From NCBI RefSeq assembly GCF_003086415.1, contig NZ_QEFP02000004.1, positions 30,001-62,000 of the forward strand: DNA of 32,000 nt, read 5' to 3'. The notes beneath the pieces were generated by a model. It saw only the letters and a program-made list of their open reading frames with translations, was not told the origin of the DNA and ran no database searches. The stretch comes from Candidatus Nanobsidianus stetteri (lineage in GTDB: Archaea; Nanobdellota; Nanobdellia; Nanobdellales; Nanobdellaceae). Positions 18,634 through 28,595 of this stretch are shown one piece after another. The translations under genes and the position numbers were made by a program. Numbering within the stretch: position 1 is the stretch's first letter; each line of letters starts with the position of its first letter.

Positions 18634-20283
18634 ATGTATGAACTTATTAATGATATTATAAAAAAGAGCCTTAGAAAGATTACCATAATATTTAGTATAA
18701 TAATTGCATTAATAATTATAATAGGAAAATATTTACCAGTATTAAAAATATATTATCCAATTTTATATTTGTCTGCTGTTGTTTTTTCATTAGAAGTTAT
18801 ATTTCTAGAATATTATAAAACAAAAAAATCATTGGATAAATCTTTACTATATTATATAGCATATTTGTATTCTCTTTCATTTTCTACAAGCAATATTAAA
18901 AGATTATTAGAAATTGCAATTGAAGAAAAAGCAGAATTTAAAGATATAAATTATTATATGTCAAAGATACTTTTTTTAACAAAAAAATATAATTATACAA
19001 TCCCAGAAGCTATAAGATATGTATTACCATATATTCCAAATAGTAATTTCAAAAGTTTTTTAGAAAGATTTGCAACTTCAATTGATATAGGTGAAGAAAT
19101 ATCAGAATTTTTATATAAAGAATATGAGACACAATTGGCAATATATGAAGCAAATTATGAAAAAGGTTTAGAAAATATAAGATTATTAGATGAATTTATA
19201 ATATCTTTATTATCATCTTTAGGATTTGCATTTTCTATAATATTATTTATTCCATTCTTAATAGGTGCAAATATAATATTTTTACTGGCGGATTTCTTTA
19301 TAATATTCATTGTAATTAATTTACTTATATATTATGTATCAAAATATTATATCCCAGATGATGGATTATGGTCTCATTCAAAAGAAAAACCAAAAGAATA
19401 TATTACAATAAGATATTTATTTTACCTTCTATCTTTTTTATCCTATATATTATTTTTAGCATTATTTTTAGTATTAAAATTACAATTATTAGAGGCCTTT
19501 GCAATAGCAGTTACACCATTAGCATATGTAAGTTATAGGATGATATTATTAGAAAGAGCATTAAAAATAAAAGAAAATCATTTCCCAGCATTCTTTAGTA
19601 GTATAATAGAATATTCTGAAATATTTGGAAGTAATCAAACAAAAATATTGGATAATGTTATTATACATGATTTTGGTTTATTAAATGAAGATATTAATAG
19701 ATTAAGGAAAAGGATAAATATAACAAAAAATTATTCCGAATCCTGGAGATATTTTATAGTTGAATTGGGTAGTTCTATCGCAGAAAAAATAATAAAGGTA
19801 TTTGAAAAAGTTTTATCATATAATGGAGATACAAAGAAGGCAGGAGATATGTTATATAATATATTAATAAAGATAATTGAACTTAGGTCTAGAAAATCTC
19901 AATTTATATCAAATTTAAGGGGTATTATATATGGAACATATATAGCATTTATAGCAATTTTATTTATAATTGCTCAAATATTATATTTATTAAACCAGAT
20001 GTTTCAGGGTATATCTACAGCACTCGGTACTGCAGTAGCTCAGATAGGTATAAATATATATACATTTTCAATACCTCTATATATATTGCAAGATTATATA
20101 TTTGTAATATCTATTATTGAAGCTTTTATCTTAGCTGGAACATTAAAAAATATAGATGGGGGATCTAAACTTGGAATGTTCTTAGATGCGACAGTTATGA
20201 TATGGTTAAGTGCACTATTAAATATTGGGGTATATTATTTATTTACATATGTATTCTCTGGTCTATCTTTAGTAAAAATATAA
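18634..20283 (+). CDS. FlaJ/ArlJ-like archaellum or type IV pilus platform membrane protein
   Basis: 549 aa. Two soluble helical T2SS-F-like segments ('FLERFATSIDIGEEISEFL', 'WRYFIVELGSSIAEKI') are each followed by TM clusters. The size fits FlaJ. Confidence 0.6.
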   Translation: MYELINDIIKKSLRKITIIFSIIIALIIIIGKYLPVLKIYYPILYLSAVVFSLEVIFLEYYKTKKSLDKSLLYYIAYLYSLSFSTSNIKRLLEIAIEEKAEFKDINYYMSKILFLTKKYNYTIPEAIRYVLPYIPNSNFKSFLERFATSIDIGEEISEFLYKEYETQLAIYEANYEKGLENIRLLDEFIISLLSSLGFAFSIILFIPFLIGANIIFLLADFFIIFIVINLLIYYVSKYYIPDDGLWSHSKEKPKEYITIRYLFYLLSFLSYILFLALFLVLKLQLLEAFAIAVTPLAYVSYRMILLERALKIKENHFPAFFSSIIEYSEIFGSNQTKILDNVIIHDFGLLNEDINRLRKRINITKNYSESWRYFIVELGSSIAEKIIKVFEKVLSYNGDTKKAGDMLYNILIKIIELRSRKSQFISNLRGIIYGTYIAFIAILFIIAQILYLLNQMFQGISTALGTAVAQIGINIYTFSIPLYILQDYIFVISIIEAFILAGTLKNIDGGSKLGMFLDATVMIWLSALLNIGVYYLFTYVFSGLSLVKI

Positions 20284-20723
20284 TTTATTTTTCTTTCCTT
20301 TGGTATAAAATCTTTCAATATATTATTTTTAACATAAACACTACATAAAATATCATTATTATCTTTTGCTATATAAAAACCATTTTCATAATTTTTTTCC
20401 AATTTTATATTTTCATTATATTTATAAAAAAGATTTTCCTTTTTTATTTCAATATTTTTATTAGAATTTATTCCAAAAATTTGTGCACCTTCTATACTAA
20501 ATCTGTATATATTATTTTTCTCTATTTTAATTACATATAAACCATATTTTTTTATATATTTTTCATCTAAAAAATCTGGAAAATTTTTATTAAACATATA
20601 TATTTTATCTTTATTAATAAAAAATCTATATTTCTTTATTATTGATTTATCTATATTTGTATTATAATATTCTTCTATTTTCTTAAATATTTCTTCTATA
20701 TTCTTTTTATTTAATTCTTTCAT
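20235..20723 (-). CDS. Small pre-PUA/PUA-like RNA-binding protein (Nip7-like?)
   Basis: 162 aa. The pattern 'GLYVIKIEKNN..FSIEGAQIF...ILCSVYVKNNILKDFIPKERK' resembles Nip7/RsmF C-terminal PUA-like modules. It overlaps rfcL by 4 nt (same operon). The call is weak. Confidence 0.35.
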   Translation of the reverse strand: MKELNKKNIEEIFKKIEEYYNTNIDKSIIKKYRFFINKDKIYMFNKNFPDFLDEKYIKKYGLYVIKIEKNNIYRFSIEGAQIFGINSNKNIEIKKENLFYKYNENIKLEKNYENGFYIAKDNNDILCSVYVKNNILKDFIPKERKINYIFTKDRPENTYVNK

Positions 20724-21946
20724 AATTTTTCTATAGCACTCTTTATATATGATATTTCATTTTCATTAAATCCTAATATTTTTGCATATTCTTTTCCTAC
20801 TTTTTCATTTTCTTTCATTAAAACAATTAATGTATTTATATATACTTCTCTAATTCTCTTTTTTGATGTATGAACCTTCTTTTGTAAATTTTTTGATAAT
20901 TCTTCAATTTTTTCTCTTATTTCTTTATTTTGTGATAATTTTTTTACATATTGTGGCATTCTATATTTTGTAAATTTATTATATCTTTTTTCTTTTGCCA
21001 ATGCAACACCAGCATACATTAATGTTGTAAAATATTTTAATAGATCCCAATATTGTCTTCTATAAATTCTTCCATAAAATACAACTGCCAAAGATAACCA
21101 ATTATAAGCTTCATATATTTCTTTTATATTTTCATATTCATTTGATATATTCTCTTCAACCCATGCTTTAATTTCTTCAGGGTCCATATCTACATCTGCA
21201 AATGGTAATGTAGCACCCATTATTGTATTTGCCTTAAACATCTGACCCAATGCTCTAAATATTGTAATTTCTCTTTCTCTATAACCTAAAACTTCTAAAT
21301 CTTTCAATGTAATATGGTTAGTCATTGTTGCCAATGCTTGTAGATCATTTATTGCACTTCTTAAATCTCCAGAAGATCTTTCTACAAGTGCAGATAATGC
21401 ATTTTCATCAATTGTTATCTTTTCATTTGCACAAATTCTCTTTAATTGTCTTATTATATCGGCATTTGATAATTTTTTGAATTCAACCATATCACATGAA
21501 TCTCTTAATTTCTTAAATTTTGGATCCCATGGATCATTTGCAGTCAATATTATTGGCCACCTTGATTCTTCTATTATTTTTACCAATGCCCCAACTCCTC
21601 CTCTATCTTGAAATCCTGCTAATCCATCTACTTCATCAACCAAAATTATCCTTCCTTTTTTGAAAAATGGTTTTCCCTTTATTGCTTCTCCCAATTTCTC
21701 ATGTATAACCCTTGCATTTCTATTATCTGAAGCATTTAATTCTACAACTTCATAATTTAAATCATTTGCAATTGCATATATTGATGATGTTTTTCCAACA
21801 CCTGGAGGTCCATATATTAATAATGCCTTTTTACTTACATTTGGATATTTTTCAATAAAGGATTTTATTTTTCCAATAGCCTCTGATTGATTAATTATTT
21901 CATTAATATGTTTTGGTGCATATTTTTTTATCCATGGCTCAACCAT
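20720..21946 (-). CDS. rfcL: Replication factor C large subunit
   Basis: 408 aa with 'WIKKYAPK', Walker A 'GPPGVGKTS', 'ELNASDNR' and Walker B 'ILVDEVDGL'. Confidence 0.85.
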   Translation of the reverse strand: MVEPWIKKYAPKHINEIINQSEAIGKIKSFIEKYPNVSKKALLIYGPPGVGKTSSIYAIANDLNYEVVELNASDNRNARVIHEKLGEAIKGKPFFKKGRIILVDEVDGLAGFQDRGGVGALVKIIEESRWPIILTANDPWDPKFKKLRDSCDMVEFKKLSNADIIRQLKRICANEKITIDENALSALVERSSGDLRSAINDLQALATMTNHITLKDLEVLGYREREITIFRALGQMFKANTIMGATLPFADVDMDPEEIKAWVEENISNEYENIKEIYEAYNWLSLAVVFYGRIYRRQYWDLLKYFTTLMYAGVALAKEKRYNKFTKYRMPQYVKKLSQNKEIREKIEELSKNLQKKVHTSKKRIREVYINTLIVLMKENEKVGKEYAKILGFNENEISYIKSAIEKL

Positions 21947-22007
21947 TATTTATATTTTTATATCAAAATATATAGATTAATATTAGGTTATCTAATAGTT
22001 ACTATTT

Positions 22008-22060
22008 GATGATAGATAGTAACGATAGATTTAAAAATTTTTTCCAACAATAATTATAGT
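22008..22060 (+). promoter_or_regulatory. Conserved array promoter, copy A: GATAGAT-N6-GATAGAT direct repeat abutting a TTTAAAAA (TATA) box
   Basis: GATAGAT lies at 22011-22017 and 22024-22030, and TTTAAAAA at 22030-22037, 31 nt before the ATG at 22061. Positions 22010-22042 are identical to 22796-22828 (33 nt). Confidence 0.6.
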
Positions 22061-22591
22061 ATGGTAGATGAAGATCTATCAGAATTAGAAAAAATGTTAA
22101 AAAGAGCCCAAATAGATAAAGAATATAGAAGGGATAATAAAGATTATTTAGAAGAAACAAAAAAGTTATATGATGAAATATTAAAAAGAGCTCCACAAGC
22201 AGAAACAACATTAGAACTACTATTAAAAAGAATAAATAGCTGTGACCTATGCGATAAAGGAGAAGAATCTGGTGTATTTAAAGCTAGTATAATGAGTGCT
22301 TTTAGAGAATATGTTGAAGAAATAGATCCTACAAAACCGGATTATAAACAGAAAGTAAATAATTTAGAGTATAGTATGTTACATTTATCAACTAAATTGG
22401 TATTTACTGCAACATATATAACCTTCTTAGAAGAATTGCAAAATAATCTACGTAAATATGATTCATTAGAAGAAGCATATAGGTGGACATCTGAATACAT
22501 TAAATCAGCTATAGGATATCTACTTGAAGATCCTATAGGACACAGAAAAAGATTTGAAGAGTATATGCAAGTTGACAAATTATTAAGGTAG
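22061..22591 (+). CDS. Array paralogue 1: helical protein of unknown function
   Basis: 176 aa starting 'MVDEDL', with no TM or signal sequence. It carries the C-terminal family motif 'IGYLLEDPIGHRKRFEEYMQV'. Confidence 0.65.
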   Translation: MVDEDLSELEKMLKRAQIDKEYRRDNKDYLEETKKLYDEILKRAPQAETTLELLLKRINSCDLCDKGEESGVFKASIMSAFREYVEEIDPTKPDYKQKVNNLEYSMLHLSTKLVFTATYITFLEELQNNLRKYDSLEEAYRWTSEYIKSAIGYLLEDPIGHRKRFEEYMQVDKLLR

Positions 22592-22637
22592 ATTATTATA
22601 TAAAAAATAGAGAGTTCTTACATAAAAATATAAAATC

Positions 22638-22643
22638 TTTTTT
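22638..22643 (+). terminator. Oligo-T tract (archaeal intrinsic terminator candidate) in the conserved motif ATCTTTTTTATTTAAT
   Basis: A T6 run lies 47 nt after the stop of paralogue 1. The same motif follows paralogues 2 and 5. Confidence 0.4.
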
Positions 22644-22656
22644 ATTTAATTTTTAT

Positions 22657-22698
22657 TTAATGACTAAATAAAGATAAAAGTCTACTTAATATAACACT
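22657..22698 (-). pseudogene. Relic copy of the last ~13 codons plus stop of the 139-aa membrane-protein gene
   Basis: The reverse complement reads '...VILSRLLSLFSH*', against the real C-terminus 'GILSGLFSLFSH*' at 26872..26910. No upstream ORF is attached. Confidence 0.65.
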
Positions 22699-22793
22699 CT
22701 TTTTGTTGTATATTTTTATCCAGCTTAATCATTATTTAATATTTCTAATTAGAATATTAAAATATGTAGGATATATCTGCATAACTTCTATCT

Positions 22794-22845
22794 AGTGATA
22801 GATAGTAACGATAGATTTAAAAATTTTTCTAACAATATTTTTAGT
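22794..22845 (+). promoter_or_regulatory. Conserved array promoter, copy B
   Basis: GATAGAT lies at 22797-22803 and 22810-22816, and TTTAAAAA at 22816-22823, 30 nt before the ATG at 22846. Confidence 0.6.
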
Positions 22846-24042
22846 ATGGTAGATACCTCCTCATATCAAAAACAATCTAAAACATCGGAAGAATTAGTAA
22901 CGAAAAAACTCAATAAAGCTATAGCAGCATATACTTCTTATCTATTTACAAAGAGTAACGTACTGGAGAGAGTATCAGAAAAAGAAATACGCGCATTAAG
23001 ACCATTAGAAAGAATAATAAAAAAGTTAGATGAATTTGGTGAATGTAAAAGTTTTTTAACCAATGATCCAGAAACTCTCCAAAAGTGTATAGATGAATAT
23101 GAATTTAAGGATGGCTTACTTAGAGGTATTTCTGCATATCACATATGGGAACGTACACCAGAACAAATTGAAGAATTTACAAAAGGTTTAGAAGCATTGT
23201 CAAGAGGAGGAAAACGAGCAATAAAAGATTTATATCAACGATTCCAGCAATATAAAATTACTTCAGTACCTCAGGAAGATTTAGATCCCAGATTATTTGC
23301 AATAATACCCGAAATTAGTGCTATTGAATCTCTTATACTTCGATATTTAGAGAATCCCAGAGATTATAGAGAACGAGTTAGTAAATATTTAGGAAAAAAA
23401 CCATTAGAAGCAAGAATAGAAAAAGGAAAAGAAGTAGAATCATATGATGAATTAAGGAGGGCCATAAAGGGATACACCCTTTACTTATCTTACAAAGAAT
23501 TTGCACTTAAGGTAGTATCAGAACATATACCAGAAGCTTTACCATCGTTAGTAAAATTAATAGAAAACTTAGAAGAATGGAGAAAGTACAGAATTTTTTC
23601 ATATATCGATAAAAAATATCTCAAAGAGTATGCAGATAAATATTACGTTATGGCTCACATCCTTTCAATTATTCCAGAATGGTGGTTATCAAAGCATGAG
23701 CATACACTAGAGGAAATTAAAAGATTTACAGAAGGTTTGGAATTTTTAGCAAGAAAAGGCAAAGAAATAGCAAATGGTCTATATAAACTTTATAAAGAAG
23801 CATATAGATTGGCATTAGAAGATATATCAAAAGGTAAGCAAACTATATATCCATATGAGCTAGAAAATGTACGCTCAATTGCGGCTGGAAGGATAAGATA
23901 TCTTCTAGAAAAGTATTTTAGGAATCCTGAAGAGTATGAAGATCAACTTATGAAATATGCAGGATTGAAGCCATTAGACTGGTTTGATAGAGCAATATGT
24001 AACTTATATGGCGGCTGTAAAACAGAAAATCAAAGTACATAA
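22846..24042 (+). CDS. Array paralogue 2: two tandem family modules fused in one protein
   Basis: 398 aa from ATG 22846 ('MVDTSS', the same first codons as paralogue 1). The ORF-track GTG start at 22795 merely translates the conserved promoter. The internal repeat is about aa 15-190 vs 200-385, for example 'FTKGLEALSRGGKRAIKDLYQRF' / 'FTEGLEFLARKGKEIANGLYKLY' and 'RYLENPRDYRERVSKYLGKKPLE' / 'KYFRNPEEYEDQLMKYAGLKPLD'. Confidence 0.7.
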   Translation: MVDTSSYQKQSKTSEELVTKKLNKAIAAYTSYLFTKSNVLERVSEKEIRALRPLERIIKKLDEFGECKSFLTNDPETLQKCIDEYEFKDGLLRGISAYHIWERTPEQIEEFTKGLEALSRGGKRAIKDLYQRFQQYKITSVPQEDLDPRLFAIIPEISAIESLILRYLENPRDYRERVSKYLGKKPLEARIEKGKEVESYDELRRAIKGYTLYLSYKEFALKVVSEHIPEALPSLVKLIENLEEWRKYRIFSYIDKKYLKEYADKYYVMAHILSIIPEWWLSKHEHTLEEIKRFTEGLEFLARKGKEIANGLYKLYKEAYRLALEDISKGKQTIYPYELENVRSIAAGRIRYLLEKYFRNPEEYEDQLMKYAGLKPLDWFDRAICNLYGGCKTENQST

Positions 24043-24060
24043 GACTTTTTGATAAGATCA

Positions 24061-24066
24061 TTTTTT
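24061..24066 (+). terminator. Oligo-T terminator candidate after paralogue 2
   Basis: A T6 run in 'atcattttttatttaat', 19 nt after the stop. Confidence 0.4.
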
Positions 24067-24197
24067 ATTTAATCTTTTATTTAATGACTAAATAAGAAGA
24101 AAAATTTTCTTGATATACTAAACTTTTGCTATATATTTTTATCCATAATTCAACTCTAGATATTAAAATTATGGGATATATTGTATAACTTCTATCT

Positions 24198-24248
24198 GGT
24201 AATAGATAAAAACAATAAGTTTAAAATTCTTCCAATATAATATATATT
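24198..24248 (+). promoter_or_regulatory. Conserved array promoter, copy C (diverged repeat, TTTAAAAT box)
   Basis: 'aATAGATaaaaacAATAAGTttaaaat'. The box at 24220-24227 lies 29 nt before the ATG at 24249. Confidence 0.5.
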
Positions 24249-24887
24249 ATGGTTAAAACACTAGATGAAAAAATAGAAGAAGCTAAACGAAAAATAATAA
24301 CAACAGAATCCAAATATGAGGATTATGCAACAGCAATAAGACATGCATATGAACAGATAAGAGAAGTAGATCAAGAAAGTATTCCATTATTGTGGAATTT
24401 AATAAAAACTATGGAAAAATTTTCAACCTTTGACATAGAACTTAAAGAGTTCATATTATCCAATATACGTAAAGTGGCATCTTATGTTGAATTATATCCA
24501 TATTTCAAAGAAAGAATTATTCAAAACTTAAGAAGAGGTATAGAAATCTTAACAAATGAGGAAGGACTTCTTAAGATGAATGAATTATATTCCCTTATAT
24601 TAGATGGAAAAATACCTTTACAAAATTTTGACAAATATTTAAAAGAAGTACATGATTGGGCCTATAGAAATAACCTAAAATGGGATCAAGAAACTAAAAT
24701 AAAGTATGCACGGCAAAAAGGAGCATATGAGTACATTGGAGTTATTATAAAAGGTTTATTAATGGATCCAACTAAGTATGAACCATTATATAAACAACTT
24801 ATAGAAACATATGATTTAGAAAAATTTGTTGAACATTTACAAAAAGAATATGAAAAGTTAATCCCAAAAAAAGATGTAACTTTTTAA
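24249..24887 (+). CDS. Array paralogue 3: helical protein of unknown function
   Basis: 212 aa with family motifs 'LRRGIEILTNEEGLLKMNELYSL' and 'IIKGLLMDPTKYEPLYKQLIETYDL'. Confidence 0.65.
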   Translation: MVKTLDEKIEEAKRKIITTESKYEDYATAIRHAYEQIREVDQESIPLLWNLIKTMEKFSTFDIELKEFILSNIRKVASYVELYPYFKERIIQNLRRGIEILTNEEGLLKMNELYSLILDGKIPLQNFDKYLKEVHDWAYRNNLKWDQETKIKYARQKGAYEYIGVIIKGLLMDPTKYEPLYKQLIETYDLEKFVEHLQKEYEKLIPKKDVTF

Positions 24888-24975
24888 GATATAATCATAG
24901 CATATTTTTAATAAAACTTTTCTAATTTTTTAGTGATTAAATAAAGAGAAAAATTTCCTTAATATACTAAACTTT

Positions 24976-25006
24976 TTGTTATATCTTTTATCCATGGCTC
25001 AACCAT
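24976..25006 (-). pseudogene. Relic copy of the rfcL start codon and first ~7 codons
   Basis: The reverse complement reads ATG GTT GAG CCA TGG ATA AAA (MVEPWIK, identical to rfcL codons 1-7). It then diverges and stops after 15 codons ('MVEPWIKDITKSLVY*'). Confidence 0.7.
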
Positions 25007-25067
25007 TATTTAATATTTCTAATTAGAATATTAAAGTATGTATAATGAATTTAATATAATTATTGCC

Positions 25068-25119
25068 TAATAGTAGATAATAACGATAAACTTAAAAAAT
25101 TTTTAATAATTAATTAGTT
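25068..25119 (+). promoter_or_regulatory. Conserved array promoter, copy D
   Basis: 'tagTAGATaataacGATAAACttaaaaaa'. The box at 25091-25099 lies 29 nt before the ATG at 25120. Confidence 0.5.
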
Positions 25120-25860
25120 ATGGCGGACAGACCCTCTGATAAGAAACTTCTCGCCGAACTGTTTGCTAATGTATATCATAACATAGTCTCTGCCGAACGA
25201 CATCAATGTAAATCATCTTTAGAGGATACACTAGCCGAATTAAATCGACAAATAGTATATATCGAAGTTGAAGTATTTGAAAATATGGGTGCTGAAATGT
25301 TCTATAAAGTGAATAAAAAACTTCGACCATCATTAGATAAATTAATGCGAACTATAAGAGAATGGATAAAATACGGAAAATCTTTAGAACCATCAATACC
25401 GATTATTAATAGATTATATTATACAAATATATGGAATATTATAGATAAATGCTATTTTGCAACCAGTATATTAAGACCTATTAATCAATACTTAGAAGCG
25501 GTAAGTTTCGAATCTAACAAATCGAATTTTGAAAAGAAATTTGATAATTTAAATAAAGTTATAGGTTATTTATTATCTCTAGAGATACTTAATGCTTTGT
25601 ATGCAAGATTTTATAATAACGCTAAAGAAGTACTTGATAAATTAGATGAACCAATTGGAAATGATAAATTTGAAGATAGACCAATTAGCTATTCAGCAGG
25701 ACTTAAGGATGTTATTGATGAAATTAGGCTTAGTTTTCAGGAAGCATCTAATGATATTGAAGGTATCATAAAGTATCTATTAAAAAATCCTGAAGAAAAT
25801 ATAAAACAAGTTAACAAAATTATAGGAATTAGTGAAGATTATAGAAATAATAAAAAATAG
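25120..25860 (+). CDS. Array paralogue 4: helical protein of unknown function
   Basis: 246 aa with the C-terminal family motif 'IIKYLLKNPEENIKQVNKIIGI'. The 5' end is unusually GC-rich for this window (26 G+C in 25121-25180). Confidence 0.65.
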   Translation: MADRPSDKKLLAELFANVYHNIVSAERHQCKSSLEDTLAELNRQIVYIEVEVFENMGAEMFYKVNKKLRPSLDKLMRTIREWIKYGKSLEPSIPIINRLYYTNIWNIIDKCYFATSILRPINQYLEAVSFESNKSNFEKKFDNLNKVIGYLLSLEILNALYARFYNNAKEVLDKLDEPIGNDKFEDRPISYSAGLKDVIDEIRLSFQEASNDIEGIIKYLLKNPEENIKQVNKIIGISEDYRNNKK

Positions 25861-26061
25861 TTTGATATGTATAAAACTGAAAGAATTCTAGCATCTTTAG
25901 AGGCTTACCATTACTAAAAGATATGCGTATTTTTTATCCTTAGTTTAGTCATTATTTTTATTTTAGAATATTAAAGTTACATTGAATATATTAAAATAGT
26001 TACTATTTGATGCTAAATAAAAACAATAAATTTAAAAATTTTTCTAACAATATTCTTTAGT
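25861..26061. repeat. Composite array spacer R4 (most diverged)
   Basis: The rfcL relic 'ttttatccttagtttagtcattattttta' lies at 25932-25960. The promoter block 'aatagttactatttgatg' (25995-26012) matches copy A (21995-22012). Confidence 0.7.
26009..26061 (+). promoter_or_regulatory. Conserved array promoter, copy E
   Basis: 'tgCTAAATaaaaacAATAAATttaaaaatttttctaacaatatt'. TTTAAAAA at 26031-26038 lies 31 nt before the ATG at 26062. The tail 'tttttctaacaatatt' is shared with copy B. Confidence 0.55.
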
Positions 26062-26823
26062 ATGTCAAAGACCTCCAACAATTTAAATCCAGAAGCCTAT
26101 TTTCAGATATTTAAATTATTAAGTACATTTAGTACAAGGATGTATGAGGAAGAGTTAGGAAAAGAGTTTGTAAAAGAATTTGGAGAAAAATTAATAGAAT
26201 ATGCAAAAAATTCATATGAAGAGTATCAAAAAGAGTTACAACAAGCTCATAACAAACTACCTCAAACATATAGAGAGATGCTAGATGTATTACTAAAAAA
26301 GATAGATGACTCAGTTCCATGTAAAGAAGAAAATTGTCTAAATTCATATGAATGGTCGGATATTTATCAATATATATATAAAAATCACTTTAAGGCCAAT
26401 GTAATAAGAATTATTAACAAACATCTCGAAGGATTGGATTCTGCACTACCAAATTATAATAAAGAAATTAAAAATATAAGAGATGTTTTAATAACCCTCT
26501 CAGAGACGGAGGTAAATAAAACATTGTTTGCAGCTTATATGTTAACAGAATACAATGCCTTAATCGATATCCTAAGCAATCCAGCAAACTCATCAATTAA
26601 TGATAAAATATTTAAACAGATAAAAAATTTAAAGGCATCTAATGATGTTCAAAACTATATTAATGCTATCCAAAACTATATTGAGAAACAAATGGAATGG
26701 ATTGACTTATCATATAAAAAGGCATCTGAATATATTGAAGATACTATAGAAGAGCTTTTCCACAATAATGCAGAAGGATTTGTCGTAAAAATGTTAAGTG
26801 CATTATTTAAATATATTGCTTAA
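26062..26823 (+). CDS. Array paralogue 5: helical protein of unknown function
   Basis: 253 aa and the most diverged member. Its C-terminus 'IEDTIEELFHNNAEGFVVKMLSAL' occupies the position of the family motif. It has the same promoter and 3' cassette as the others. Confidence 0.6.
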   Translation: MSKTSNNLNPEAYFQIFKLLSTFSTRMYEEELGKEFVKEFGEKLIEYAKNSYEEYQKELQQAHNKLPQTYREMLDVLLKKIDDSVPCKEENCLNSYEWSDIYQYIYKNHFKANVIRIINKHLEGLDSALPNYNKEIKNIRDVLITLSETEVNKTLFAAYMLTEYNALIDILSNPANSSINDKIFKQIKNLKASNDVQNYINAIQNYIEKQMEWIDLSYKKASEYIEDTIEELFHNNAEGFVVKMLSALFKYIA

Positions 26824-26863
26824 ATATAATAGAAATAGTTTATAAGATAAATTGGTATAAATC

Positions 26864-26869
26864 TTTTTT
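26864..26869 (+). terminator. Oligo-T terminator candidate after paralogue 5 (convergent with the 139-aa gene)
   Basis: A T6 run in 'aatcttttttatttaat', the same motif as after paralogue 1. Confidence 0.4.
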
Positions 26870-26871
26870 AT

Positions 26872-27291
26872 TTAATGACTAAATAAAGAGAAAAGTCCAC
26901 TTAATATACCACCTTTACTTTCAACTATTTGGCATGGTAAAATTGCCTCATATTGATTACCATTCACAGTATAATATACTCTTACATATGCATTTAATAT
27001 AATAATATTATTATTTACACTGCATGCATTCATAGATCCATAATTTATATTTCCTAAATTGCATGTTGAATTTTCATAGAAATTATATACTGTTACATTT
27101 TCCAAATTTTGTTTTGCAGTAATTATAACAAGGGATGTTCCATTTGCGTATTGACAACTATATGTAAAATATTCCAAATATGGAGGTAAATAAGATGTTA
27201 CATAATAAATATATATTGCATATAGAACAACCAATATAAAAGCTGCTACACCAACCCAGATTACAAATTTTGGTATCTTTGATATATCCAT
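26872..27291 (-). CDS. Small N-terminally anchored, sequon-rich protein (probably extracellular), function unknown
   Basis: 139 aa with one N-terminal TM helix ('FVIWVGVAAFILVVLYAIYIYYV'), 5 Cys, and the sequons NGT, NVT and NST. Its 3' end is the source of relics found in the array spacers. Confidence 0.5.
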   Translation of the reverse strand: MDISKIPKFVIWVGVAAFILVVLYAIYIYYVTSYLPPYLEYFTYSCQYANGTSLVIITAKQNLENVTVYNFYENSTCNLGNINYGSMNACSVNNNIIILNAYVRVYYTVNGNQYEAILPCQIVESKGGILSGLFSLFSH

Positions 27292-27295
27292 AAAA

Positions 27296-27610
27296 TTAAT
27301 TTTGATCTACATATATATAAACATAGATATATTTGTTCCCCCTGTCTTCGATCTTCATATTTTTTATAATCTCTTCATATTTTTTACTATCTATATCAAA
27401 TAGATCTGGATATTTATTTAATATATAATCCATTATCAATCTTTTTATCATAATATCCTCATTCTTATGCACATTTTCAGAATTATACTCATCTAAAATC
27501 CCTTCTATTATATATTTTGGAATCTTAAATTCATATTCAATATTATACGGCATGTAAGATTTTACTATTTTCCAAAATATAAATGATTGCTTTATATTCT
27601 TGAATTTCAA
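27296..27610 (-). CDS. Hypothetical protein
   Basis: 104-aa ORF packed tightly between neighbours, with no motif I recognise. An internal start at 'MPYNIEYEF' is possible. Confidence 0.4.
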   Translation of the reverse strand: MKFKNIKQSFIFWKIVKSYMPYNIEYEFKIPKYIIEGILDEYNSENVHKNEDIMIKRLIMDYILNKYPDLFDIDSKKYEEIIKNMKIEDRGNKYIYVYIYVDQN

Positions 27611-27626
27611 AAATGATTATCAAAAA

Positions 27627-28595
27627 TTATTTTCTACTTTGTAAACCTCTAAGTCCTATATATGCTAGCAAAGCACCTAATTGTATTATTGGATCTGAAC
27701 CCTCTAATAATCTATATTCTATCTCTCCAGCATAATATATTATATCTAATTTTTCTTTTTCTGGTATATTCATTGAATAAACTTCCTTAGATAAATATTT
27801 AATTATATCTTCTCCAGCAAGACCATATTTTATCATTAAATCAATTAATTTTTCTCTAGCCTCAACAAATTTTCCTTCATATGCCAATTTTAATACTTCT
27901 TGTAATTCCTGTGGTTTTGCTACAGAGGCAACTTCATATATTAATTCTGGAGTTATATCTTTAGAATATAAAGCCGCAGCTTGTAACATATTTATTGATT
28001 TTCTCATATCACCTTCTGAAATATAATATATTGCTTCTAATGCATCATCGGTTATATTTAAATTTTCTTTTTCAGCTATTGACCTTAATAAATCGAATAC
28101 ATCCTTTTTATCTAATTGTTTAAATCTAAATATAACAGTTCTAGATTGAATTGGTTCTATAATCTTTGATGAATAATTACATGCCAATATAAATCTTGTT
28201 ATTGAAGAATATTCTTCCATTATTCTTCTCAAAGCTTGTTGTGCGTCTCTTGTCATTGCATCTGCTTCATCCAAAAATACAATTTTAAATGGAAAATCTC
28301 CAATTGGTTTTGTTCTTGCAAATTCCTTTACCTTTTCTCTTATTACATCAATCCCTCTATCATCTGAAGCATTTAATTGTAATACATTTTGTTCCCATTT
28401 ATCCCCATACAATTCTCTTGCTAATGCTAATGCAGCAGTTGTTTTTCCAACACCCGCAGGTCCTGCAAATAATAAATGAGGCATATTTTTATTTTCTACA
28501 AATGCCTTCAATCTTTTTACTATTTCATCTTGTCCTTTTATATCATCCAATCTTTTTGGTCTATATTTTTCAGTCCATATTTCATTCTCTGGCAT
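27627..28595 (-). CDS. rfcS: Replication factor C small subunit
   Basis: 322 aa with '[13 protein letters not shown]', Walker A 'GPAGVGKTT', '[10 protein letters not shown]', Walker B 'FLDEADAMT' and 'QSRTVIFRF'. Confidence 0.95.

Follow-up and report, generated by a model that had tools for sequence, protein, structure and literature searches.

Spacers carrying copies of both flanking gene ends in a variable cassette array of Candidatus Nanobsidianus stetteri

The array and its spacers

The stretch of DNA analysed here (the window; 32,000 nt of Candidatus Nanobsidianus stetteri, GC content ~24%) includes the minus-strand genes rfcS, g104 (104 aa), g139 (139 aa), rfcL and a NIP7/PUA-like gene, with five plus-strand open reading frames (ORFs) located between g139 and rfcL. 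These ORFs are designated cassettes 1-5 (products P1-P5) and the spacers separating them S1-S4, and the loci compared with the window are given L-numbers. The spacers, which are the subject of this work, carry relics of the two genes that flank the array, namely the 3' end of g139 and the start of rfcL. RfcL of the window is 92-98% identical to its counterparts in Candidatus Nanobsidianus stetteri Nst1, Candidatus Nanopusillus acidilobi 7A and several Nanopusillus metagenome-assembled genomes (MAGs), and a database search found 100% identity between P4 and a 'Candidatus Nanobsidianus stetteri' protein.

The proximal flank of the array is rfcL (20720-21946, minus strand), which encodes the 408-aa large subunit of replication factor C with the Pfam domains AAA, RFC lid and RFC1_C, and is 92-100% identical across the Nanopusillus and Nanobsidianus loci. 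As defined by the junction and local alignments, the segment copied into the common class of spacers (class I, described below) is the first 37 nt of the gene (21910-21946, minus strand). Between rfcL and cassette 1 lies S0, a 114-nt divergent promoter region (21947-22060), the sequence of which recurs in every spacer (repeat family D1) and which includes a TATA-like CTATATAT ~25 nt upstream of the rfcL ATG. The distal flank, g139 (26872-27291, minus strand; arCOG05419 in N. acidilobi), encodes a predicted membrane protein of 139 aa with a hydrophobic N-terminal helix, several N-x-S/T sequons and a hydrophobic C-terminal tail, and one transmembrane segment is listed in N. acidilobi. The T-rich tail after the last cassette (26824-26871) adjoins the real last 41 nt of g139 including the stop codon (26872-26912), and these 41 nt are the source of the g139 relics, as judged by repeat families D2 and D5 and by the alignments.

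The cassettes were assigned to types by clustering at 45% identity, and all are on the plus strand. Cassette 1 (22061-22591) encodes a 176-aa protein of type D, 72% identical to an L007 cassette; cassette 3 (24249-24887) a 212-aa protein of type C, 81-82% identical to an L002 cassette; and cassette 5 (26062-26823) a 253-aa protein of type E, 59% identical to a pseudogene copy in L011. The 246-aa product of cassette 4 (25120-25860, type K) is predicted to be a bundle of long helices. Cassette 2 (22846-24042; 398 aa, type A) is an in-frame fusion of two modules (repeat families D7, D9 and D18) with an internal repeat at 549-nt spacing, and each half has single-module relatives that are separate cassettes in other strains (L005_c1 and L002_c2). 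Its start was set at the ATG matching that of other cassettes, the ORF listing extending to a GTG at 22795. Two A-type cassettes are adjacent in L036, and fused forms of 396-434 aa recur in many strains.

Analysis with MAFFT and a repeat finder resolved three repeat families in the spacers, the g139 3' end (D2), the rfcL start (D3/D4) and a promoter-proximal block of ~70 nt (D1). In S1-S3, a 40-41-nt copy of the g139 3' end is followed, after a 3-nt gap, by a decayed copy of the first ~37 nt of rfcL together with rfcL-upstream/promoter sequence. Local alignment placed the g139-end relic at 22657-22697 (38/41) and the rfcL-start relic at 22701-22738 in S1 (22592-22845), and the corresponding relics at 24081-24120 (32/40) and 24124-24166 in S2 (24043-24248), each pair being followed by the promoter. 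In S3 (24888-25119), the g139-end relic is at 24930-24969 (33/40), the rfcL-start relic at 24973-25012, with 37 matches over 42 query bases and an exact 27-mer at 24986-25012, and the promoter motif at 25074-25097. S4 (25861-26061) includes only an rfcL-start relic (25924-25957; 27/35) and the promoter, with no detectable g139 relic (score 26.5, equalled by 43 of 200 shuffles). An earlier, sequence-only reading of this DNA had assigned both parts to every spacer, which holds for three of the four, S1-S3, whereas the g139 part of S4 is at the level of chance.

The 27-mer, TTTTATCCATGGCTCAACCATTATTTA, has two exact copies in the window, one at the real rfcL start (21926-21952) and one in S3, where none is expected (100 shuffles), and a 43-mer of the g139 3' end likewise has two copies, none being expected, the second lying at 22653-22695 with three mismatches. 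Chance likeness in AT-rich DNA, which the sequence-only reading had named as what would refute its claim, was rejected by shuffling and by scoring all other 230-nt segments of the 32 kb. The relic alignment scores (39.5-71.5) exceeded the maximum of 34-36.5 found over 226 other AT-rich 230-nt segments, and were reached by none of 200 shuffles, the S4 g139 relic excepted. Together with the local alignments, these tests bear out the claim that the spacers carry copies of the g139 end and the rfcL start. The real end of g139 translates to GGILSGLFSLFSH followed by a stop, the S1 relic to SVILSRLLSLFSH followed by a stop, and a 15-codon mini-ORF in S3 (24959-25006, minus strand) to MVEPWIKDITKSLVY followed by a stop, reproducing the earlier translations. 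As the relic frame is not kept between spacers or strains, the mini-ORF is regarded as accidental and was rejected as a functional element.

Each cassette is preceded by the motif TAGATARWAACRATARRYTTAAAA on the plus strand (22013-22036, 22799-22822, 24203-24226, 25074-25097 and 26014-26037), identified in a motif scan that gave these five matches, one per cassette, and none elsewhere in the window, with 0.03 expected. A TATA-like TTTAAAAA starts ~30 nt before each cassette ATG, which suggests that the cassette mRNAs are leaderless, promoter activity being predicted here from the sequence. In S1, a perfect 7-bp inverted repeat, CTATCTA-N4-TAGATAG (22788-22805), overlaps the promoter motif just upstream of the TATA box, and weaker copies precede the other cassettes; a dimeric regulator that all cassettes share might use this repeat as its operator.

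Class-I junctions and the real gene ends

Spacers of the common form, class I, consist of a g139 relic, an rfcL relic and the promoter, and include S1-S3. Fourteen distinct class-I junction sequences from 13 arrays (window included) were aligned with the real genes, giving the consensus ...CTTAATATACCAC, 3 nt, TTTTGTTGTATATTTTTATCCATGGYTCAACCAT..., in which the joint lies in a short T-rich stretch. The g139 part stops 41 nt into the gene, counting the stop codon (26912 in the window), and the rfcL part starts 37 nt into the gene (21910 in the window), rather than at 45-60 nt and 20-30 nt, respectively, as had been proposed. All class-I junctions have derived changes in common, namely GTTGTATATTTTTATCC as compared with GGTGCATATTTTTTTATCC in the real sequence, both in the window and in the population; relative to the real rfcL, GTTGTA replaces GGTGCA and T5 replaces T7. 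The shared private mutations and breakpoints indicate descent from one junction, made once and then propagated.

The order of the scar, with the end of the distal flank followed by the start of the proximal flank and then the promoter, is that of the reciprocal junction expected of a head-to-tail duplication with breakpoints inside rfcL and g139. On the aligned sequences, one illegitimate duplication would have created the class-I scar, which later copies inherited and which probably then spread by homologous unequal crossing-over. Hence, of the repeated tandem duplication proposed in the sequence-only reading, duplication with breakpoints in both flanks stands, but the shared derived changes show that the breakpoints were not re-made each time. 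The spacers are thus likely to be junction scars of tandem segmental duplication, which now also serve as the repeated sequence shared across a recombining cassette array.

The chance that chimeric spacers were produced by collapsed or mis-joined repeats during assembly is negligible. Repeats do make up the array, within which many metagenome contigs break off, but the same architecture is found in the closed PacBio/MiSeq sequence of N. acidilobi (CP010514, L005) as well as in the draft genome of Nst1 (L003), in MAGs and in independent metagenome contigs, dozens of which run from one flank to the other.

At least two further junction classes occur besides class I. Class II, located upstream of F-type cassettes (e.g. 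in N. acidilobi, L005), has a g139 relic of at least 59 nt followed directly by a different promoter, without an rfcL relic. Class III, found after E-type cassettes, has no coding relics, and its shared sequence is limited to the core promoter and to the tail as far as the g139 stop. Spacers of the S4 type, in which the rfcL relic stands alone, are also found in L001 and L003, where they follow the related H-type cassettes. More generally, spacer variants tend to accompany particular cassette types: the first 45 nt after the stop codon track the type of the upstream cassette (identity 0.76 versus 0.59), and the last 45 nt, which form the core promoter, are uniformly conserved.

In several haplotypes, relics share variants with the real ends of the genes. 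Over 64 nt, the g139 end of L018 is identical to a relic (array coordinates 891-956 and 1651-1714, equivalent to window positions 26868-26935), and both are mosaics of 'real-type' and 'relic-type' variants that are found apart in sister haplotypes. Translation of this allele changes the C-terminal residues of g139 from ...ESKGG... to ...ESGSS..., and a duplication scar can, apparently, overwrite the real g139 end, as read from the L018 sequence. A C/T single-nucleotide polymorphism (SNP) of the rfcL start, GGCTC/GGTTC, is swapped between the real and relic positions in L060 and L064, and for the C-terminal part of g139 the relics of L020 and L021 have an allele belonging to other strains, not that of the strain in which they lie. 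Two S0 alleles occur in the population, ...TATTTATATTTTTATATCAAAATATATAG... (the first) and ...TATTTAATATTTCTAATTAGAATATTAAAAT... (the second); the window S1 and S3 relics carry the second, as does S0 of L002, L004 and L007, and the window's own S0 carries the first. Given this exchange, the near-perfect relic in S3 reflects recombination or gene conversion rather than youth, and the gene conversion that the sequence-only reading had offered as an alternative is supported by the L018 identity and by the SNP swapped in L060 and L064.

The relics might instead have been kept by selection as functional elements, the copied rfcL promoter and start with the T-rich g139 end acting as an antisense promoter, an insulator or a terminator. 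The rfcL relic does bring a TATA-like TTTTAATA ~25-30 nt upstream of the relic ATG; within the g139 relic, conservation is best in the T/A-rich TTAATGACTAAATAAAGAGAAAA adjoining the T-tracts that end the cassette; and the uniform conservation of the core cassette promoter fits this proposal. However, the relic ORF is not conserved, with a frameshift in S1, loss of the ATG in some strains and peptide tails that differ; many spacers have neither or only one of the relics, and their cassettes are still intact; and the SNPs and mosaic alleles shared by real and relic copies point to exchange. A hairpin terminator formed by the cassette tail and g139 relic was also rejected, as the predicted folds are no more stable than those of shuffled sequences (z -0.9 to +1.5). 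That the relics are kept similar by such selection rather than by recombination is unlikely, although selection on them as regulatory elements could act alongside recombination and is not exclusive of duplication scars. Inverted repeats in the spacers are weak and AT-only, and Rfam gave no match to a known non-coding RNA anywhere in the window. A scan for sigma-70 promoters and intrinsic terminators returned counts at the level of shuffled sequence, these bacterial models being uninformative for an archaeon.

Variation of the array and the cassette family

An RfcL-based metagenome scan added 77 loci, and 60 distinct arrays are bracketed by both flanks. Across these haplotypes, which have flanks ~98% identical, the array includes from 0 to ~6 cassettes of ~14 types in permuted orders. 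The empty site was found in L010, a Nanopusillaceae MAG with an RfcL 76% identical, in which rfcS, g104, g139, rfcL and nip7 are contiguous with no cassette, the end of g139 (9965) and the start of rfcL (10001) being ~30-35 nt apart. In the window, the upstream part of the interrupted operon is formed by g104 (27296-27610) and rfcS (27627-28595), both on the minus strand and assigned from Pfam and relatives; g104 has no database match, and both g139 and g104 lie between rfcS and rfcL in the outgroup too. The g139 product of L010 is likewise hydrophobic-tailed (...GLLSWILR), and the copied g139 end accordingly looks, from this sequence, ancestral to g139.

The gap between g139 and rfcL ranges from 35 nt in the empty site, through 222 nt in L006 and ~0.7-1.0 kb in the 20 single-cassette loci, to classes of ~1.3-1.8, 2.3-2.7, 3.2-3.6 and 4.2-4.9 kb, the window having the largest array among the 60. 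The single-copy arrangement that the sequence-only reading had looked to relatives for is found in 20 of the 60, and the loci that have it hold types A, B, C, D, E, G, L or N. L006 was considered as an ancestral promoter-only state and rejected, since its 222-nt gap is a deleted F-type cassette that retains the F promoter, the ATG and a few decayed codons with stops (ATGAAATAGTATTTGATAATATTAGAGAAAGC).

The order of cassettes is D-A-C-K-E in the window, B-E-K-D-C in L014, C-B-D-E in L075, C-A in L002 and A-C in L026, and more than 50 different neighbour pairs were found, C-A and A-C both among them. L001 (B-H-A-C-G) and L002 (C-A) differ although their RfcL sequences are 100% identical. Similarly, the window and L001 have different arrays between flanks that are 97.7-98.2% identical in DNA, with homology extending no further than 26871 and 22069. 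B-H-A-C-G, A-B-B-A and two single-B haplotypes occur together in metagenome Ga0081534, and C-E-B-C, A-D, H-C-A-G, C-B, D and C-E-E-A haplotypes in metagenome Ga0081473. The recovery of several haplotypes from one metagenome indicates variation within populations and not only between springs. A published orthologue table pairs Nps_02355 of N. acidilobi with Nst1_466 and Nps_02360 with Nst1_464, an order reversed relative to Nst1 (PMC4935971).

Within the window, BLASTP links only P4 with P5 (6e-10) and P1 with P5 (6e-5), and the paralogues are far more diverged than the spacers. All cassette types connect once relatives are included in the BLAST comparison, with the colinear motifs LPxLxxLI, GLExL, LYxxY and I..LLxxP, and a profile-profile comparison (hhalign) of the C/B and K/H groups gave a probability of 81% (E = 1.2e-5). 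The family has no match in Pfam, PHROGs or PADLOC, and comprises 39 clusters among 5.8 billion proteins and 66 among 1.84 billion representatives. All 179 matches of the family HMM among the loci retrieved fall inside the rfcL-g139 gap or at its edge, and two database matches checked for context (P0038 and P0013) come from the same locus. The AlphaFold2 model of P4 is a long-helix bundle (pLDDT 81, pTM 0.80) with no structural relative in PDB or BFVD at E <= 0.001; Foldseek comparison with proteins of variable-family type gave E > 0.1 and TM-scores < 0.4. No hydrophobic N-terminus, signal peptide or lipobox was evident by eye in the cassette translations, to which no predictor was applied. The cassettes are thus predicted to encode an all-helical family without known relatives, confined to one locus in the databases searched.

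These comparisons bear on whether one lineage repeatedly duplicated the same unit, the copies then diverging in place so that relic decay measures how old each duplication is. A reciprocal junction like that of the scars is expected of tandem duplication, and relic decay does vary, being least in S3 and greatest in S4. Yet cassette order and content are permuted between strains with identical RfcL and flank DNA ~98% identical; relics and real ends show 80-100% identity, but BLASTP fails to detect most pairs of paralogues; other strains have the decayed S4-type spacer, in conserved form, after related cassettes; and polymorphisms are common to real and relic copies. The difference between paralogue and spacer divergence shows that simple duplication in situ with neutral decay of the relics is insufficient, and, given the permuted orders and the association of spacer variants with cassette types, relic decay provides no age order of the duplications here. 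Together with the exchange between real and relic copies, these findings leave the age order put forward by the sequence-only reading unsupported. As a complete account, such an in-situ history is already contradicted, and it is improbable overall.

The cassettes could also be mobile, moved by site-specific recombination as in integrons or by tandem integration, in which case the flank fragments would be copies of an attachment site. A single site with variable cassettes, in variable number and order, and a conserved repeat containing copies of target-gene ends superficially resembles serial integration that restores a gene end. Against this, no integrase, transposase or recombinase domain was found with Pfam among the called genes within ~6 kb either side, which have ribosomal-protein, RFC, methyltransferase, TatD, Exo_endo_phos or Aldedh domains, or none. 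In addition, the order of the relics (g139 end, rfcL start) is the reverse of that at the empty site, and the two share no core sequence; a search for a conserved inverted-repeat site was negative; every cassette is preceded by a promoter of its own; and neither another genomic context nor viral contigs were found to contain the family. Movement of this kind is very improbable. Integron arrays do resemble the present array in having variable numbers of unrelated-looking ORFs in the same orientation at a fixed chromosomal site with a recurring element between them, but here there is no integrase or attC-like folded site, the ORFs belong to one protein family with their own promoters, and the recurring element is a duplication scar of the flanks. 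A viral origin found no support, cassette 3 having no relative in IMG/VR viral contigs. Nor was a reverse-transcriptase domain of a diversity-generating retroelement present in the neighbourhood, and differences between cassettes extend over the whole protein rather than being confined to one repeat.

Pairwise dN/dS values within cassette types, calculated by NG86, which is crude at 24% GC and in which dS saturates for the more diverged types A and B, were 1.24 (A), 1.05 (B), 1.06 (C), 0.91 (D), 0.84 (E), 0.71 (F), 0.46 (G) and 0.39 (H), and those of the flanking genes on the same contigs were 0.11 (rfcL), 0.08 (rfcS) and 0.20 (g139). An ORF of at least 150 aa follows 97 of 110 promoter-motif sites (88%), and in a simulation <0.5% of neutral descendants stay open at 10% divergence. 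High dN/dS together with intact ORFs suggests that the proteins are kept functional while their sequences change fast, and points to diversifying selection on functional cassette proteins. Truncated or frameshifted ORFs follow 13 of the 110 promoter sites (~12%; in L007, L011, L047, L020, L027, L058, L078, L034 and L001). The sole cassette of L047 is in fragments, and in the second cassette of L002 the original ATG is now ACG and the start lies further downstream.

On the other side of rfcL, the NIP7/PUA-like gene follows with a 4-nt overlap (20720-20723). The next gene, on the opposite strand (18634-20283), encodes a 549-aa multi-pass membrane protein, the N. acidilobi counterpart of which is annotated 'Archaeal flagella assembly protein J'; further on there are genes for ribosomal proteins.

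Origin and possible role of the array

The proposed history starts from an operon rfcS-g104-g139-rfcL-nip7, with g139 and rfcL ~30-35 nt apart as in the outgroup L010. One gene for a helical protein, with its own promoter, would have inserted between g139 and rfcL in the opposite orientation, obliging rfcL to acquire its own promoter in S0. A single illegitimate head-to-tail duplication would then have fused the terminal 41 nt of g139 with rfcL at a position 37 nt into that gene. Later units share a spacer of ~200 nt, made up of the cassette tail, g139 relic, rfcL relic, rfcL promoter and cassette promoter, and the true flanks share spacer sequence over ~90 nt next to g139 and ~150 nt next to rfcL. 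Spacers and flanks would have undergone unequal crossing-over and gene conversion, both inside one strain and among strains that occur together, and these processes may have been dependent on RadA, which is among the abundant proteins of N. acidilobi (PMC4935971 supplement). Such exchange would expand, contract, fuse, reorder and swap cassettes while keeping the relics similar to the real gene ends, and the variety of cassettes would be driven by diversifying selection.

This history has the features of known tandem duplications propagated by unequal crossing-over: paralogous units head-to-tail in the same orientation, a novel junction between the distal and proximal flanks (the rfcL relic only in S4) that is propagated in later units as the class-I junction, and copy-number polymorphism with an empty site, as well as gene fusions, pseudogenes and concerted evolution of the repeated non-coding parts. 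Unlike in such families, the spacer here is conserved and the coding sequence diverged, and the order is permuted at the population level. The scars also include the start of the essential rfcL and the 3' end of a gene for a membrane protein, real gene ends that the exchange seems to affect in turn (L018), and the setting is the 0.6-Mb reduced genome of an obligate archaeal symbiont.

Several points weigh against duplication scars maintained by recombination in an array under diversifying selection. The coding-relic homology of 37-41 nt is short for homologous recombination, so that promoter and tail sequence next to the relics may be where most exchange takes place. Extra events are needed for classes II and III and for S4, either independent breakpoints or later deletions. 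Many of the haplotypes are from metagenome contigs, and shuffling is deduced by comparing haplotypes, no event having been seen directly. The dN/dS values, which have the limits given above, are near 1 and, with 12% of copies broken, are also compatible with weak constraint. Of the two N. acidilobi cassettes, one was detected by proteomics: Nps_02355, which adjoins rfcL and is among the more abundant proteins of the cultivated strain, had an abundance of 0.44 and ranked 55 of 656 encoded proteins, rfcL ranking 75 (PMC4935971 Supplementary Data 1), and Nps_02360 was not detected (PMC4935971).

As regards function, our best guess is that the cassette proteins have a strain-specific role in interaction with the host, with viruses or between self and non-self. 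The array might then be a population-level specificity repertoire of an obligate archaeal ectosymbiont, in which abundant and fast-diversifying helical proteins are reshuffled via duplication scars and the copied rfcL promoters perhaps add antisense control, a proposal that we put forward only tentatively and with some doubt. The proteins could be, for example, effectors passed to an Acidilobus/Sulfolobales host, anti-defence factors or self/non-self factors. In the paralogous families of Borrelia and the variable-lipoprotein arrays of Mycoplasma, similarly, helical tandem proteins restricted to a lineage vary in presence and order between co-occurring strains, with dN/dS near or above 1 and ORFs kept intact. 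Unlike in those systems, a promoter is present on each copy here, with no arrangement of silent cassettes and an expression site, all five copies in the window having a start codon and promoter motif; no phase-variation repeats were seen.

No mention of the array locus was found in Jarett 2018, in the main text of Wurch 2016 or in searchable full texts on variable arrays of Nanopusillus and Nanobsidianus. The locus appears to be undescribed in searchable papers, and the mechanism is classical. The scar is the textbook signature of tandem duplication, unusually clean and traceable to a single founding event, and its setting is the essential RFC operon in a genome that is among the smallest of any known cell, at an apparent hot spot of gene turnover. 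The exchange between relics and real ends indicates that essential genes can in turn be affected by such scars. Extreme genome reduction and symbiosis between archaea are both studied with Nanoarchaeota as models. For a locus that withstands streamlining and differs between strains found together, host-range or conflict functions are natural candidates, and the array offers a marker for strain tracking. If the repertoire interpretation is true, the array would correspond, in an archaeon, to the variable gene arrays known from parasites among the bacteria and eukaryotes.

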